From a virus (taxonomy: Duplodnaviria > Caudoviricetes): a DNA stretch of 64,000 nucleotides. Below the pieces are notes generated by a model, which had not been told where the DNA came from, ran no database searches, and saw only the letters and a program-made list of their open reading frames with translations. The translations under genes and the position numbers were made by a program. This document shows positions 4,720 to 43,565 of this stretch, piece after piece. The DNA lies in the IMG/VR virus record IMGVR_UViG_3300005686_000008; one strand, written 5' to 3'. Within the stretch, counting starts at the first letter, position 1. Every line of letters begins with the position of its first letter.

Positions 4720-5028
4720 ATGGAAAAGAAGCCATTTTTAGTAAATGTTGAAATAGAGTTTGCTATTTTCGCGGAAAATGAAGACGCCATTTATAATCAT
4801 CCCGATCTTAGACGAGCAGTAGAGGAGGCTTTATACACAAGCGACTCTTGTATTTCTTTTATAGATCCTTTAGATAGAATACCTAATGGATGGAGCGGAG
4901 ATTGCCTTGTTTATGGAACGGATGAAGATATAACATTAGAAGAGGCTCTAAATTGGAAGCCTAAAGAATCTGAACCAATAGATAAGTATACAATGCTGTT
5001 TCCATTTATGACGATAGATCCAGCATGA
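4720..5028 (+). CDS. hypothetical protein
   Basis: Tightly packed ORF. Confidence 0.6.
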   Translation: MEKKPFLVNVEIEFAIFAENEDAIYNHPDLRRAVEEALYTSDSCISFIDPLDRIPNGWSGDCLVYGTDEDITLEEALNWKPKESEPIDKYTMLFPFMTIDPA

Positions 5029-19336: not shown

Positions 19337-19410
19337 GCCCCCGTAAGCTCAATGGTAGAGTTAGGAGTCTCTAAAACTCTTTGTTGCAGGTTCGAGTCCT
19401 GCCGGGGGCG
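19337..19410 (+). tRNA. amber suppressor tRNA, anticodon CUA
   Basis: Acceptor GCCCCCG/CGGGGGC; D arm GCTC/GAGT; anticodon arm GGAGT-CTCTAAA-ACTCT; T arm GCAGG-TTCGAGT-CCTGC. Confidence 0.85.
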
Positions 19411-38614: not shown

Positions 38615-38687
38615 GGCCCTGTCGTCTAGAGGTTTAGGACGTAAGACTTTCAATCTTTCAACCGGAGTTCGATTCTCCGCAGGGTCA
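38615..38687 (+). tRNA. tRNA-Glu(TTC)
   Basis: GGCCCTG/CAGGGTC; loop CTTTCAA; T loop TTCGATT. Confidence 0.9.
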
Positions 38688-38716: not shown

Positions 38717-39214
38717 ATGAGTAAGATTTGTACGAAATGCAAACAACCAGGAACCTTTTGCAAAGATAGCAAAAGCAAAGACGGGTTACAATCTCAATGT
38801 AAGATTTGCAAATCTAAACAGATTGTTTCTTACCTTCAAAAAAATAAGGACAAAAGATCAAAATCTGGTCCAGAAAAAAGATTACGTTACTACTATAAGC
38901 ATAAAATTTCTATGAATATGTCTCGCATAATTCGTAGATCATTGCAAGGCTTGAAGAAAGGAAATCATTGGGAACAGCTTGTAGGGTATTCGGTTGAAGA
39001 GTTAAAGCAACACCTAGAAAAACTCTTCAAAGAAGGAATGAATTGGGAAAATTATGGGAAATGGCATATTGATCATGTTATTCCAGTTTCTTCCTTCAAT
39101 ATTGTTTCTGTAAATTGTGAGGATTTTAAAAAATGTTGGGACATTAAGAATCTACAGCCTTTATGGGCTAAAGATAACTTGAGCAAATCAAATAAAATCG
39201 GCCCTATCTGCTAA
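38717..39214 (+). CDS. HNH homing endonuclease
   Basis: CTKC..CKIC; GMNWENYGKWHIDHVIP..NLQPLWAKDNLSK. Confidence 0.9.
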   Translation: MSKICTKCKQPGTFCKDSKSKDGLQSQCKICKSKQIVSYLQKNKDKRSKSGPEKRLRYYYKHKISMNMSRIIRRSLQGLKKGNHWEQLVGYSVEELKQHLEKLFKEGMNWENYGKWHIDHVIPVSSFNIVSVNCEDFKKCWDIKNLQPLWAKDNLSKSNKIGPIC

Positions 39215-39271
39215 CGGCTAGGCTCCCTGATTCTCAGTCAGGTAATACGAGTTCGAATCTCGTTAGGGTCA
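39200..39271 (+). tRNA. tRNA-Glu(CTC)
   Basis: GGCCCTA/TAGGGTC; CCTGA-TTCTCAG-TCAGG; overlaps HNH stop. Confidence 0.85.
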
Positions 39272-39879: not shown

Positions 39880-39953
39880 ACTCCCGTGGCTCGACTGGAT
39901 TAGGCGGAGGTTTTCTAAACCTCTCAAAGCGGGTTCGAATCCTGCCGGGAGTG
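39880..39953 (+). tRNA. tRNA-Arg(TCT)
   Basis: ACTCCCG/CGGGAGT; GAGGT-TTTCTAA-ACCTC; TTCGAAT. Confidence 0.85.
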
Positions 39954-42655: not shown

Positions 42656-42859
42656 ATGCAAATAACTTCGCAAAAACTACTTGTACTTTTGAAAGCTAGC
42701 AAAGAAATGGCTAGACTGTATGAAATAACAGATTCCGATGCCATGCAAAAGGGATTGGAAATCATGGGCGATATAGCCTCTGAATTCTCATCAGATGAAT
42801 TGCAAAAGATGATTGAAGAGGTTGAGAAAGAAATTTGTCCCAGTAGCTCAGTTGAATAG
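42656..42859 (+). CDS. hypothetical protein
   Basis: ORF whose end runs into a tRNA 5' remnant. Confidence 0.45.
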   Translation: MQITSQKLLVLLKASKEMARLYEITDSDAMQKGLEIMGDIASEFSSDELQKMIEEVEKEICPSSSVE

Positions 42860-42861
42860 AG
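42837..42861 (+). pseudogene. 5' remnant of split tRNA-Arg
   Basis: GTCCCAG-TA-GCTC-AGTTGAATA-GAG; acceptor strand pairs with CTGGGAC at 43382-43388. Confidence 0.75.
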
Positions 42862-42874
42862 AGTGTATAAAAAT

Positions 42875-42947
42875 GTCCTCGTAGCTCAATTGGAAGAGCA
42901 ACAGCCTTCTAAGCTGTAGGTTACTGGTTCGAGTCCAGTCGGGGATG
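42875..42947 (+). tRNA. tRNA-Arg(TCT)
   Basis: GTCCTCG/CGGGGAT; ACAGC-CTTCTAA-GCTGT; TTCGAGT. Confidence 0.9.
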
Positions 42948-43006
42948 CTTGATTAGAAGAAGGATTTCTAAACAGTTCTTTGTATTTCACCTATAGGAGG
43001 TGAAAT

Positions 43007-43354
43007 ATGAGGAAATGTCAAAAATGTCAGGTAGAAAAAAATGAAGAAGAGTTTTATGCGACAACTCGCAAAAACAGCTATTGTAAAGTCTGTTTTAATG
43101 AGTATTGCATAAACAGATGGAAGCAAAGAAAAATTGATGCAGTTAACTACAAAGGTGGCAAATGCGTAATATGTGGATATAAAAAGAATCATTCCGCATT
43201 AGATTTCCACCACAGAAATCCTAAAGAAAAAGATGTTGATTGGAGTCAATTAAGACTTAGAAGTTGGAAAAAGATTATTGAGGAACTCAATAAATGCGAT
43301 CTAGTTTGTAGAAACTGTCATGCGGAAATCCATAATCCGCAGTCAAGCTTCTAA
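43007..43354 (+). CDS. HNH homing endonuclease
   Basis: YKGGKCVICGY..ALDFHH..KCDLVCRNCHAEIH; RBS in hairpin. Confidence 0.9.
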   Translation: MRKCQKCQVEKNEEEFYATTRKNSYCKVCFNEYCINRWKQRKIDAVNYKGGKCVICGYKKNHSALDFHHRNPKEKDVDWSQLRLRSWKKIIEELNKCDLVCRNCHAEIHNPQSSF

Positions 43355-43389
43355 GCGGCAGGTCACAGGTTTGAGTCCTGTCTGGGACG
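43347..43389 (+). pseudogene. 3' remnant of split tRNA-Arg(TCT)
   Basis: CTTCTAA loop, GCGGC, AGGTC, ACAGG-TTTGAGT-CCTGT, CTGGGAC-G. Confidence 0.75.
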
Positions 43390-43565
43390 TTTATGAAAGT
43401 TATTAGAAGCGAACATGGAATTGAATTAATTCCAGAAACGGAGTTCGAAAAAGAGTGCTTGAGGCTAATTGCCAATAGAGCAGTAACTCCTGTTTGGACA
43501 GACTCTTGGAACCGAAGCGGCAATCTCAAGATTGAAGCTAAAGAACCAGATTGGGGAACGTAGTC

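Follow-up and report, generated by a model that had tools for sequence, protein, structure and literature searches.

Introduction

Selfish nucleases usually spare their host: they lie between genes, reside within a self-splicing intron or an intein, or split a protein whose pieces reassemble. Here we describe a locus in a 64,000-nt stretch of phage DNA (the window) that differs from these arrangements, in that the cost of a broken RNA gene appears to be paid with a carried spare copy, presumably one without the cut site.

The closest described systems each share part of this anatomy. SegB is a free-standing GIY-YIG homing endonuclease encoded in the tRNA gene cluster of phage T4 (PMC2330249, PMC13096335). 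Like the nuclease of the window, it lies among phage tRNA genes, outside any intron, and is missing from close relatives. SegB cuts the tRNA genes of phages that lack it, which leads to its preferential inheritance and to rearrangement within the tRNA region; for the HNH protein of the window, comparable cleavage is predicted from sequence. Unlike that HNH protein, SegB belongs to the GIY-YIG family, sits between tRNA genes and splits none of them; it recognises a T-arm motif common to many tRNAs and comes without a dedicated replacement tRNA. Intron-less homing and genes in pieces are described for SegF and MobE of T4-like phages (Belle et al. 2002, via PMC5871332; PMC2790892; PMC2988022). 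There, as proposed for the window, a free-standing endonuclease is inherited with its flanks, and a carrier is protected because the element, lodged within its target or next to it, has destroyed the recognition site. Where such elements are known to split a gene, the broken gene still works since the protein pieces reassemble, whereas in the window an RNA gene is abandoned and the second copy in the cassette would substitute for it.

Group I introns, together with their endonucleases, are described from the anticodon loops of bacterial tRNA genes (PMC3984707; I-Ssp6803I family, PF11645). Elements of this kind enter the same type of gene at nearly the same site (L035 and L021 at 34/35; L041, with a PF11645 nuclease, at 33/34). 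Such introns splice themselves out; the window has no ribozyme, so nothing splices, and neutrality would be bought by the spare gene. Devoto et al. (2019, PMC6784885) described 'enigmatic' tRNA introns in Lak megaphages, one of them with a predicted tRNA gene inside; these phages share with the window a tRNA gene nested in another tRNA gene of a ~0.5-Mb phage. The Lak insert is short, was read as an intron and comes with no mention of a nuclease (PMC6784885), whereas an HNH gene forms part of the insert described here and the outer tRNA gene is demonstrably incomplete.

Results

Remnants of a tRNA-Arg gene flank a second tRNA-Arg gene and an HNH gene

The window comes from a phage of ~505 kb found in sludge, including JGI samples 3300005675, 3300038816 and 3300013771, and the locus lies just 5′ of the lysyl-tRNA synthetase (LysRS) gene. 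At its upstream edge, a 67-aa ORF (42656-42859) runs into the 5′ remnant of an old tRNA-Arg(UCU) gene, which we read in the sequence at 42837-42861 on the plus strand (25 nt, tRNA positions 1-24; GTCCCAG TA GCTC AGTTGAATA GAG). This remnant retains the acceptor 5′ strand GTCCCAG, U8-A9, and the D stem and loop. The 3′ remnant, read in the same way, lies on the same strand at 43348-43389 (42 nt, positions 32-73; CTTCTAA GCGGC AGGTC ACAGG TTTGAGT CCTGT CTGGGAC G). It retains the anticodon loop CTTCTAA, the stem strand GCGGC, the variable loop, the T arm, the acceptor strand CTGGGAC and the discriminator G. Directly behind it comes TTTATG, with which the next ORF starts; L035 and L039 show the same arrangement. 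An insert of 486 nt separates the two remnants. An earlier note on this DNA had described two tRNA halves with complementary acceptor strands, and both are present: the acceptor strand of the remnant at 42837 pairs with 43382-43388 at 7/7 positions. The 5′ remnant matches at 25/25 positions the 5′ exon of an intact, intron-containing tRNA-Arg(UCU) gene on an unrelated contig (L021), and both the old gene of the window and the L021 gene combine a D-loop A19 with a T-loop U56, a paired change that is rare. Because of this identity and the joint A19/U56 change, we conclude that the pairing of the remnants is not due to chance. Exact-match searches of IMG/VR with either remnant gave no hit, and a single metagenome scan gave L021 only.

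The old gene is broken, as the earlier note held, but it is not cleanly split: ~7 nt, covering positions 25-31 (the last part of the D stem, nucleotide 26 and the anticodon-stem 5′ strand), are missing or overwritten, with TCAAG in place of GCCGC. Hence, the two remnants of the window cannot rebuild the whole old tRNA. The cassette between them opens with an AT-rich leader, followed by a complete tRNA-Arg(UCU) gene; a conserved spacer then leads to an HNH gene. ARAGORN, Rfam and PHROG 2255 agree with the earlier description of an intact, different tRNA-Arg(UCU) and an HNH gene between the halves. This tRNA had been called an isoacceptor; its anticodon is the same, and it is therefore an isodecoder.

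The leader (AGTGTATAAAAAT; 42862-42874, plus strand, 13 nt) joins the 5′ remnant to the new tRNA, and in L022, L039, L040 and L041 the spare tRNA likewise follows a comparable AT-rich stretch. It may include a -10-like element. A scan of the locus for consensus promoters and terminators gave nothing above chance and no match in the leader, so that a promoter role for the leader is something we only infer. The replacement tRNA (42875-42947, plus strand) was identified by ARAGORN and by Rfam (tRNA, 69.1 bits, E 7e-14) and has the anticodon stem ACAGC/GCTGT. In 6/6 cassette-bearing lineages, an intact tRNA-Arg(UCU) lies 55-62 nt 5′ of the HNH start.

The conserved spacer (42949-43006, plus strand; alignment A3) contains the motif AGGATTTCTAAAC at 42961-42973, unchanged across six lineages, and the 5′ arm of a hairpin. 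The invariant motif does not recur as a general motif across the window. We rejected the idea that AGGATTTCTAARC, from the spacer, is a promoter in general use by the phage, since its 8 matches in the window compare with 5.6 expected and give no enrichment. The hairpin, obtained by folding the window sequence (15 bp; 42978-43012, plus strand; -16.3 kcal/mol, z -5.0), buries the HNH Shine-Dalgarno sequence GGAGGTG and the ATG. Equivalent hairpins with altered sequence are formed in L022, L023, L039, L040 and L042 (z -3.1 to -4.5); the hairpin over the Shine-Dalgarno sequence and ATG emerges from single-sequence folds only, RNAalifold giving a weak consensus of -4 kcal/mol for the whole spacer. 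These predicted folds suggest that the hairpin is likely to repress translation of the HNH gene. Similar translational control is known for phage homing endonucleases, for example I-TevI.

The HNH gene (43007-43354, plus strand; 115 aa) matches PHROG 2255, 'HNH endonuclease', with E 3.7e-31. Its stop codon TAA (43352-43354) coincides with U36-A37-A38 of the old anticodon loop, just as the earlier note had it. The protein has an N-terminal zinc ribbon (CxxC...CxxC; C53, C56, C101 and C104 invariant) and the catalytic His...Asn...His motif, with H68, H69, N103, H105 and H109 invariant in the 9 clade members aligned (alignment A4). The Pfam HNH model PF01844 scored below threshold (E 1.5; 9.5 bits, cut-off 21.4), and a search of PDB sequences with the clade profile gave no match; we therefore assign the family from the motif and the PHROG profiles.

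The locus is not an assembly artefact: gene order is identical in L015, L024, L033 and L034, which come from different samples, and 24/24 contigs read with an identical LysRS, counted as independent, give the gene order of the window. The cassette is fixed in every sampled strain of this phage, and because it is present in all of them no recent homing event was caught. A search of GenBank phages did not recover any relative of the locus; its matches were generic ones to tRNAs and one to a Yersinia phage HNH gene (72% DNA match).

Relatives carry four alternative states of the locus

Orthologous loci were located through the LysRS gene, and all of those compared lie upstream of an orthologous LysRS. 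As a single-protein query LysRS gave no match in IMG/VR; the loci were recovered with a LysRS alignment. The 214-aa upstream neighbour was rejected as a synteny probe, its relatives of 47% identity not being syntenic. Four states were found: an intact intron-less tRNA gene, a gene with a group I intron, the tRNA and HNH cassette, and a PD-(D/E)XK nuclease with a spare tRNA. The HNH gene is polymorphic for presence and absence, being present in the window, L022, L023, L039, L040 and L042 and absent from L035, L043 and L041.

The earlier note had proposed a comparison with relatives, and two of them hold the uninterrupted gene without a nuclease. The L043 gene, at 4813-4888 (Rfam, 64.3 bits) and ~1.1 kb 5′ of LysRS, is an intact tRNA-Arg(UCU) that has no intron and whose anticodon stem reads GCCGC/GTGGC. 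In L035, an intact tRNA-Arg(UCU) with a GCCGC/GCGGC stem has an ORF-less group I intron after U34 (34/35; Rfam Intron_gpI, E 2.5e-6, 31.4 bits, compared with 47.9 bits for the L021 intron). In L041, a PD-(D/E)XK nuclease (PF11645) and a spare tRNA are nested in another tRNA-Arg gene, split exactly at 33/34, and two stacked 5′ pieces are present.

HNH homologues of 55-74% identity occupy the same cassette in the relatives. The right junction (HNH tail, TAA, GCGGC AGGT) is common to the window, L022, L040 and L042, and the L042 HNH tail retains GCAGC CTTCTAA; we therefore conclude that the element had entered between the D and anticodon stems and that the anticodon-stem 5′ strand later drifted as coding sequence. 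The string TAA-GCGGC-AGGT, common to these 3′ remnants, also occurs in the intact L035 gene and in ~31 IMG/VR contigs. The cassette recurs with varied flanks: the outer parts of the remnants differ between lineages and match within them (GTCCCAG/CTGGGAC, GGGACCG/CGGTCCC and GTCCTCG/CGAGGAC), the old gene of the window resembles the L021 and L113 genes, and the old gene of L040 resembles the new tRNA of the window. Such lineage-specific outer parts are what invasion of different resident alleles would leave.

The group I introns raise the alternative that the insert descends from a mobile group I intron that encoded the HNH protein and decayed by losing its ribozyme, a loss that the phage would have survived because a second tRNA-Arg gene had been recruited alongside. 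Introns after U34 are present both in the L035 orthologue and in L021, the allele nearest to the old gene of the window; this intron site is 3 nt from the right junction of the window (31/32); and the L041 nuclease, whose family is named for an intron-encoded tRNA-gene endonuclease, splits tRNA-Arg at 33/34. However, the introns known here are ORF-less, and a ribozyme remnant was detected neither in the window nor in the five other HNH cassettes: an Rfam search of 42700-43500 at E<=10 returned the nested tRNA only, and the same search recovers the L021 and L035 introns. Moreover, the left junction is at positions 22-26 and not at 34/35, the 3′ piece of the window has CTT and CTAA contiguous, as in the intron-less form, and tRNA, spacer and HNH gene are conserved as a unit in six lineages. 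We consider an origin from a decayed intron unlikely. A mobile group I intron still present in the window was rejected, that search detecting no ribozyme core between the exons, and the exons cannot give a complete gene (25-31 absent).

The remnants are best read as DNA scars

Since the remnants could pair across the insert as a tRNA-like RNA, we weighed the alternatives that they form a split or spliced tRNA, or a signal for RNase P/Z processing or stability of the HNH transcript. Pairing of the acceptor strands is complete (7/7) in four cases with four different sequences, namely the window, L022, L040 and piece A of L041; the T stems are perfect in all retained 3′ pieces, at HNH identities down to 55%; and the window retains the A19/U56 tertiary pair. 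Several observations argue against a function in RNA. The anticodon-stem 5′ strand is absent or mutated in the window, and in L022 the anticodon loop is ruined (GCAATAA) and the anticodon lost. The window has no ribozyme detectable by Rfam at E<=10, and the 13 nt after the 5′ piece are not complementary to the 20 nt before the 3′ piece, with no bulge-helix-bulge. The pieces themselves decay: L023 lacks the 3′ piece, L042 has no clear 5′ piece, L039 retains the last ~10 nt of an L035-type tRNA, unpaired with its own 5′ piece, and in L032 pairing falls to 5/7. Intact alleles elsewhere match the pieces, so that the pairing is explained without selection.

We also know of no bacterial mechanism that joins such tRNA halves. 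A function of the paired remnants in RNA is thus very improbable, and joining of the halves at the RNA level is unlikely; a split tRNA of the Nanoarchaeum type was rejected on the seven missing positions, the flanks that are not complementary and the loss of the L022 anticodon. We suggest that the remnants are DNA scars, possibly doubling as homology arms, and not parts of a spliced tRNA.

A further reading, which we regard as improbable, is that the remnants are actively maintained, either as a tRNA-like clamp in the transcript (acceptor, D and T arms) or as selected homology arms, with a single tRNA position contested, in huge phages, by three kinds of element and the intron giving immunity to the nucleases. 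If there were a clamp, tRNA-processing enzymes would cut out or stabilise the nuclease message. If there were a contest, its elements would be the group I intron, the HNH and tRNA cassette, and the PD-(D/E)XK and tRNA cassette.

One anticodon arm distinguishes broken genes from their intact neighbours

The GCCGC/GCGGC anticodon stem is absent from 9/9 intact tRNAs adjacent to an HNH gene. It is found in 4/5 broken genes that keep that part, and in the nuclease-free L035 and L043 (the latter with one G-U wobble). In the window, there is no copy of the GCCGC...GCGGC arm at <=3 mismatches. Intact alleles with this arm occur in ~31/80 sampled viral loci (IMG/VR), and the commonest phage allele reads GAGC-A-GCCGC-CTTCTAA-GCGGC-AGGT. 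This distribution suggests that the arm may belong to the HNH target and that the new tRNA may be resistant to cleavage. The HNH clade numbers 77 members, and those at greater distance (53-61% identity; L025, L026-31 and L032) also adjoin tRNA-Arg(UCU) in unrelated phages, in other geometries, and two of these contigs contain tRNA fragments as well.

These patterns bear on a less specific explanation, in which the remnants are debris of tRNA-cluster turnover and the HNH protein is a bystander or a general promoter of recombination with no specific tRNA-Arg target. On this explanation, phage tRNA-Arg variants would be swapped under selection, for example for escape from host anticodon nucleases, with the fragments left over from recombination between tRNAs, and the HNH protein would resemble SegB, which drives amplification in T-even phages. 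SegB, with its relaxed specificity, cuts many tRNA genes and drives rearrangements (PMC2330249; PMC13096335). The tRNAs of these loci are mosaic: the new ones of the window and L023 agree fully over the part that runs from D stem through variable loop and differ in the T arm and acceptor, the roles of 'old' and 'new' allele are reversed between L040 and the window, and the stacked pieces of L041 would also fit turnover. However, at least nine lineages, in four geometries, have a member of the HNH clade next to tRNA-Arg(UCU) specifically, and the junctions fall close together within the tRNA. In addition, a single anticodon arm is common to the broken alleles and is never carried by intact neighbours, and the fusion to the stop codon is conserved. 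We think it unlikely, if still worth weighing, that the remnants are debris.

The HNH and LysRS trees conflict

The HNH tree (six taxa, 118 columns) separates the window, L022 and L023 from L039, L040 and L042 with support of 98/98. It conflicts with the LysRS tree, which separates L022 and L042 from the rest with support of 96/93. The cassette flanks are mosaic among lineages. HNH and LysRS have diverged to a similar degree (55-74% and 58-76%, respectively), and much of the history of the cassette could therefore be vertical. If the cassette is old, the perfect acceptor and T stems in three or four lineages need explaining; repeated re-invasion, selection on homology arms and RNA function are candidates.

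A model for intron-less homing into tRNA-Arg(UCU) genes

The nuclease-free alleles, the recurrence in five further lineages and the tree conflict support a mobile, intron-less cassette with a substitute tRNA, and we consider it probable that the locus is a homing cassette that destroys its target tRNA gene and supplies the replacement. Comparison of relatives bears out the broken tRNA gene and the substitute tRNA of the earlier reading; cleavage of the old type of gene, and the resistance that the reading ascribed to the new tRNA, are properties that we infer. On this model, during co-infection with a relative that has the uninterrupted gene, the HNH protein would cut or nick that gene in or near the anticodon arm. 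Repair would then copy the cassette, using homology in the flanking tRNA pieces and the neighbouring genes. The insertion would remove the recognition site and make the carrier immune, and the passenger tRNA would restore the lost decoding, its different anticodon stem being expected to escape cleavage. HNH synthesis would be held low by the ribosome-binding site and start codon buried in the hairpin. The remnants are short for homology arms (25 and 42 nt), which counts against homing.

At one orthologous locus of ~0.5-Mb phages, naive, intron-protected, HNH-occupied, second-nuclease and decaying stages are thus seen side by side, and because every stage is seen at one locus, competition between the strategies is directly testable. 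Homing of this kind would offer an ordinary explanation for the redundant, fast-diverging tRNA isodecoders of huge phages, and for tRNA fragments that annotation pipelines miss or misread; it possibly also explains the puzzling megaphage tRNA 'intron' published with a tRNA inside it. For practical use, the HNH clade offers candidate sequence-specific nucleases, for which the predicted target spans ~26 bp of a conserved tRNA gene.

We also considered an integrase site of the attP type, which was rejected because the locus has both halves of the tRNA gene and lacks an integrase, in a phage of ~505 kb. In a separate IMG/VR locus, L094, an integrase ORF ends within a tRNA piece.

An HNH gene and an intact tRNA-Arg lie inside a broken tRNA-Arg gene

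The window is a strand-uniform part of a very large phage; sludge-type metagenomes have yielded contigs of up to 505 kb with an identical lysyl-tRNA synthetase (LysRS) gene. The earlier note described two tRNA-Arg pieces with paired acceptor strands, enclosing an intact tRNA-Arg(TCT) and an HNH gene, and our analysis confirmed this arrangement. The old 5′ piece (42837-42861; GTCCCAG TA GCTC AGTTGAATA GAG; tRNA positions 1-24) is followed by a 13-nt AT-rich stretch, a complete tRNA-Arg(UCU) (42875-42947; detected by ARAGORN and scoring 69.1 bits with Rfam), a 58-nt spacer, a 115-codon ORF (43007-43354) and the old 3′ piece (43348-43389; CTTCTAA GCGGC AGGTC ACAGG TTTGAGT CCTGT CTGGGAC G; tRNA positions 32-73). 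The acceptor strands of the two pieces are complementary at 7/7 positions, and the ORF stop codon is T36-A37-A38 of the old anticodon loop, as the note had also proposed. However, the old gene has not been cleanly cut in two: both pieces are present, but neither includes positions 25-31 (the last part of the D stem, position 26 and the anticodon stem's 5′ strand), and the window has TCAAG in place of the GCCGC needed for the anticodon stem. A 67-aa ORF (42656-42859, plus strand) has its TAG stop within the D loop of the old 5′ piece, and a small ORF also runs through the 5′ piece of L022, a related cassette carrier; the 67-aa ORF is probably incidental read-through produced by the insertion.

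The arrangement is real. It recurs in independent assemblies of other samples (L015, L024, L033 and L034), and all 24 of the contigs with an identical LysRS that we read collapse to it. L021, an unrelated AT-rich contig, carries an intact tRNA-Arg(UCU) whose 5′ exon matches the old 5′ piece at 25/25 positions, and both genes carry a rare paired change, A19 in the D loop (AGTTGAATA) and U56 in the T loop (TTTGA..). Hence, the old pieces descend from a working tRNA of the L021 type.

The HNH gene and its upstream hairpin

The ORF matches PHROG 2255 (E 3.7e-31), and its catalytic His-His/Asn/His residues and two CxxC pairs do not vary across nine relatives. It falls below the HNH cut-off in a Pfam search, and a sequence search of solved structures returned no relative. 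Judged by its sequence, the ORF encodes an HNH endonuclease. In each of the six cassettes, the 38 nt that end just 3′ of the HNH start codon are predicted to fold into a 14-15-bp hairpin (−11.8 to −16.7 kcal/mol; z-scores −3.1 to −5.0) that covers the Shine-Dalgarno sequence and ATG, with arm sequences that vary from lineage to lineage. Phage homing endonucleases such as I-TevI are known to be kept at low expression by sequestration of the ribosome-binding site.

Upstream of the hairpin, the spacer contains an invariant motif, AGGATTTCTAARC, that resembles a UCU anticodon loop; a scan of the motif led us to reject it as a general promoter of the phage. The invariant spacer string GGATTTCTAA (42961-42973) also occurs in L021, in a short tRNA-like piece (L021:633-687) just upstream of that contig's intron-bearing tRNA-Arg. 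This piece has a T arm and an acceptor-like end, lacks a D arm, and contains the string GGGGGATTTCTAACCC (UCU loop).

The orthologous locus exists in four states

Relatives were reached via the HNH and LysRS genes, the upstream 214-aa gene being a poor synteny probe. Every relative has the tRNA-Arg(UCU) locus 1.1-1.4 kb upstream of LysRS, and in several the next ORF begins with the same TTTATG. Four states were seen. The uninterrupted allele, which the earlier note had suggested looking for, is present in L043: an intact, intron-less tRNA-Arg(UCU) with a GCCGC/GTGGC stem and no nuclease. In L035, the gene is intact (stem GCCGC/GCGGC) and its sole interruption, between U34 and C35, is a ~190-nt group I intron without an ORF; an intron of this kind also occupies that position in L021. 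These two genes (L035:3392-3655 and L021:688-963) are missed by ARAGORN and annotation pipelines because their Intron_gpI scores, 31.4 and 47.9 bits, are below the gathering score of 50. A literature search found no report of a group I intron in a phage tRNA-Arg.

The third state, in L022, L039, L040, L042 and L023, matches the window's own cassette in make-up: an intact tRNA-Arg(UCU), a conserved 55-62-nt spacer and an HNH gene (55-74% identity). L039 is sister to the intron-bearing L035, and DNA homology between them restarts right at the end of the tRNA; this fits a cassette replacing an L035-like gene. The fourth state is that of L041 (IMG/VR 3300033121_001458), which shares ~86% DNA identity with L022 across the LysRS region and has the same spare tRNA; the gene downstream of that tRNA encodes a PD-(D/E)XK endonuclease (Pfam PF11645, E 6e-28) rather than an HNH protein. 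Its nested locus (L041:4230-4897) reads 5′ piece A (positions 1-33), 5′ piece B, intact tRNA-Arg(UCU), nuclease, 3′ piece A (positions 34-73), with two 5′ pieces stacked upstream of the spare tRNA. The outer 5′ piece and the 3′ piece together make a complete tRNA-Arg split at 33/34, and the nuclease stop is again the anticodon-loop TAA. Thus, a second nuclease family exploits the group I intron site in the same manner. An origin of the cassette as a decayed intron-borne endonuclease is suggested by the L035 and L021 introns and by L041's PF11645 nuclease, but there is no ribozyme remnant and the left junctions lend no support, and we consider this origin improbable.

Junctions and decay of the old pieces

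The right junction, in which the HNH tail runs through TAA into GCGGC AGGT, is homologous in the window, L022, L040 and L042, and the final HNH codons of L042 still read GCAGC CTTCTAA, which preserves the loop and, with 4/5 pairs, the stem's 5′ strand. Therefore, the D stem and the anticodon stem originally flanked the cassette. That 5′ strand was then taken over as the C-terminal tail of the HNH protein and drifted, which accounts for both the 7 nt missing from the window and the ruined anticodon of L022 (GCAATAA). Left junctions fall at tRNA positions 22-26.

Outside the junctions, the old pieces differ wholly between lineages but match inside each one, with acceptor pairs GTCCCAG/CTGGGAC in the window, GGGACCG/CGGTCCC in L022 and GTCCTCG/CGAGGAC in L040. 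Matched pieces resemble alleles that are intact elsewhere: the window's old gene is similar to those of L021 and IMG/VR contig L113, and the old gene of L040 to the window's new tRNA. In other carriers the pieces are decayed. What L039 retains at the 3′ side is just the final ~10 nt of an L035-type tRNA, which do not pair with the 5′ piece of the same locus; L023 lacks the 3′ piece, L042 has no clear 5′ piece, and pairing in L032, a more distant locus, is only 5/7. If the fusion is old, perfectly paired pieces in three or four lineages are the main puzzle. Repeated invasion of fresh alleles, element-level selection for usable homology arms and an RNA role are all possible. That the old pieces are joined as RNA or form a tRNA-like clamp is highly improbable, given that the anticodon stem is unable to form, L022 has lost its anticodon, no ribozyme is present and several lineages dispense with the pieces.

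Mobility and target specificity

In a tree of the HNH proteins of six phages, the window, L022 and L023 separate from L039, L040 and L042 (support 98/98), whereas the LysRS tree of the same phages separates L022 and L042 from the rest (96/93). The two splits are mutually incompatible, suggesting, though not proving, horizontal movement; we regard this evidence as moderate, since the HNH alignment is limited to 118 columns and the two genes show pairwise divergences of similar size.

In unrelated phages, more distant members of the HNH clade (53-61% identity) likewise adjoin tRNA-Arg(UCU) genes very closely, with different geometries. In L032 the HNH gene and then the intact tRNA come between the old 5′ and 3′ pieces; in L025 an opposite-strand tRNA lies 10 nt before the HNH gene, whose stop falls within a reverse-complement tRNA 5′ piece; in L026-L031 the HNH stop and the 3′ end of an opposite-strand tRNA overlap. 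Still more remote homologues lie beside other tRNAs. The GCGGC strand is present in 4/5 broken genes that retain that part, and the GCCGC arm is found in nuclease-free alleles of the orthologous locus. Viral contigs frequently contain the 26-bp string GAGCAGCCGCCTTCTAAGCGGCAGGT (~31/80 loci sampled with the 3′-arm pattern). None of the nine intact tRNAs adjoining an HNH gene has the GCCGC/GCGGC stem, and the window contains no copy of an anticodon arm with the GCCGC stem at ≤3 mismatches. This pattern fits recognition of the anticodon arm by the HNH protein and resistance of the passenger tRNA, although it could partly reflect common descent of the cassettes.

The locus is probably an intron-less homing cassette, which partly supports the interpretation in the earlier note, with the amendment that the gene was not simply cut in two. 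The anatomy, locus polymorphism, cassette recurrence and tree conflict are observed steps of this reading. The HNH enzyme would cleave the target tRNA gene, the passenger tRNA would resist cleavage, and repair would copy the cassette into the break.

Relationship to known systems

Among characterised systems, T4 SegB comes closest: this free-standing GIY-YIG endonuclease, encoded in the tRNA cluster, cuts tRNA genes of phages without SegB (PMC2330249) and can cause tRNA loci to rearrange (PMC13096335); the concept that applies to the window's cassette is intron-less homing. The mosaic tRNAs also fit a non-specific, SegB-like promoter of recombination in a tRNA cluster under other selection, but the tight, repeated tie to one tRNA species and one site makes that account unlikely. 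The nearest structural analogy to a homing cassette of this kind is the 'genes in pieces' of T4-like phages, split by a nuclease, whose protein fragments reassemble (PMC2988022); in contrast, the window's broken tRNA gene is abandoned and replaced. Nested replacement could also apply to the tRNA 'intron' that Devoto et al. 2019 (PMC6784885) reported in a Lak megaphage and that may contain a tRNA gene of its own. A full-text literature search found no published description of a nuclease-plus-replacement-tRNA cassette. The window's locus contributes the full set of alternative states at orthologous positions, together with a second nuclease family that uses this site.

Other tRNA-linked features

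In L094 (IMG/VR 3300042923_001574; minus strand, ~840-870), a tyrosine-integrase ORF stops at a TAA within the anticodon loop of a tRNA-Arg(UCU) 3′ fragment; this look-alike, to be kept apart from the nuclease cassettes, is the usual attP/attL situation of a temperate phage. A second nuclease gene in the window, unrelated to the HNH gene (38717-39214, plus strand; 165 aa; PHROG 1035 'endonuclease VII', E 2e-18; HNH-like tail), lies between tRNA-Glu(ttc) (38615-38687) and tRNA-Glu(ctc) (39200-39271), and its stop overlaps the first bases of the latter. Relatives have tRNA-Glu genes ~20 nt apart and no nuclease (L022:3502-3667 and L035:2793-3056), so this looks like another tRNA-associated homing gene, with its neighbour unbroken. 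An atypical tRNA-Arg(UCU)-like gene (39880-39953, plus strand; Rfam 42.7 bits), whose D arm and anticodon loop context (TTTTCTAAA) are unusual, is kept at the same relative position in L035 (3092-3167), L043 (2856-2930) and L040 (1616-1690). Finally, ARAGORN reports a tRNA with anticodon CTA ('tRNA-Pyl') at 19337-19410 (plus strand), a possible amber suppressor; the window's ORFs read well under table 11.
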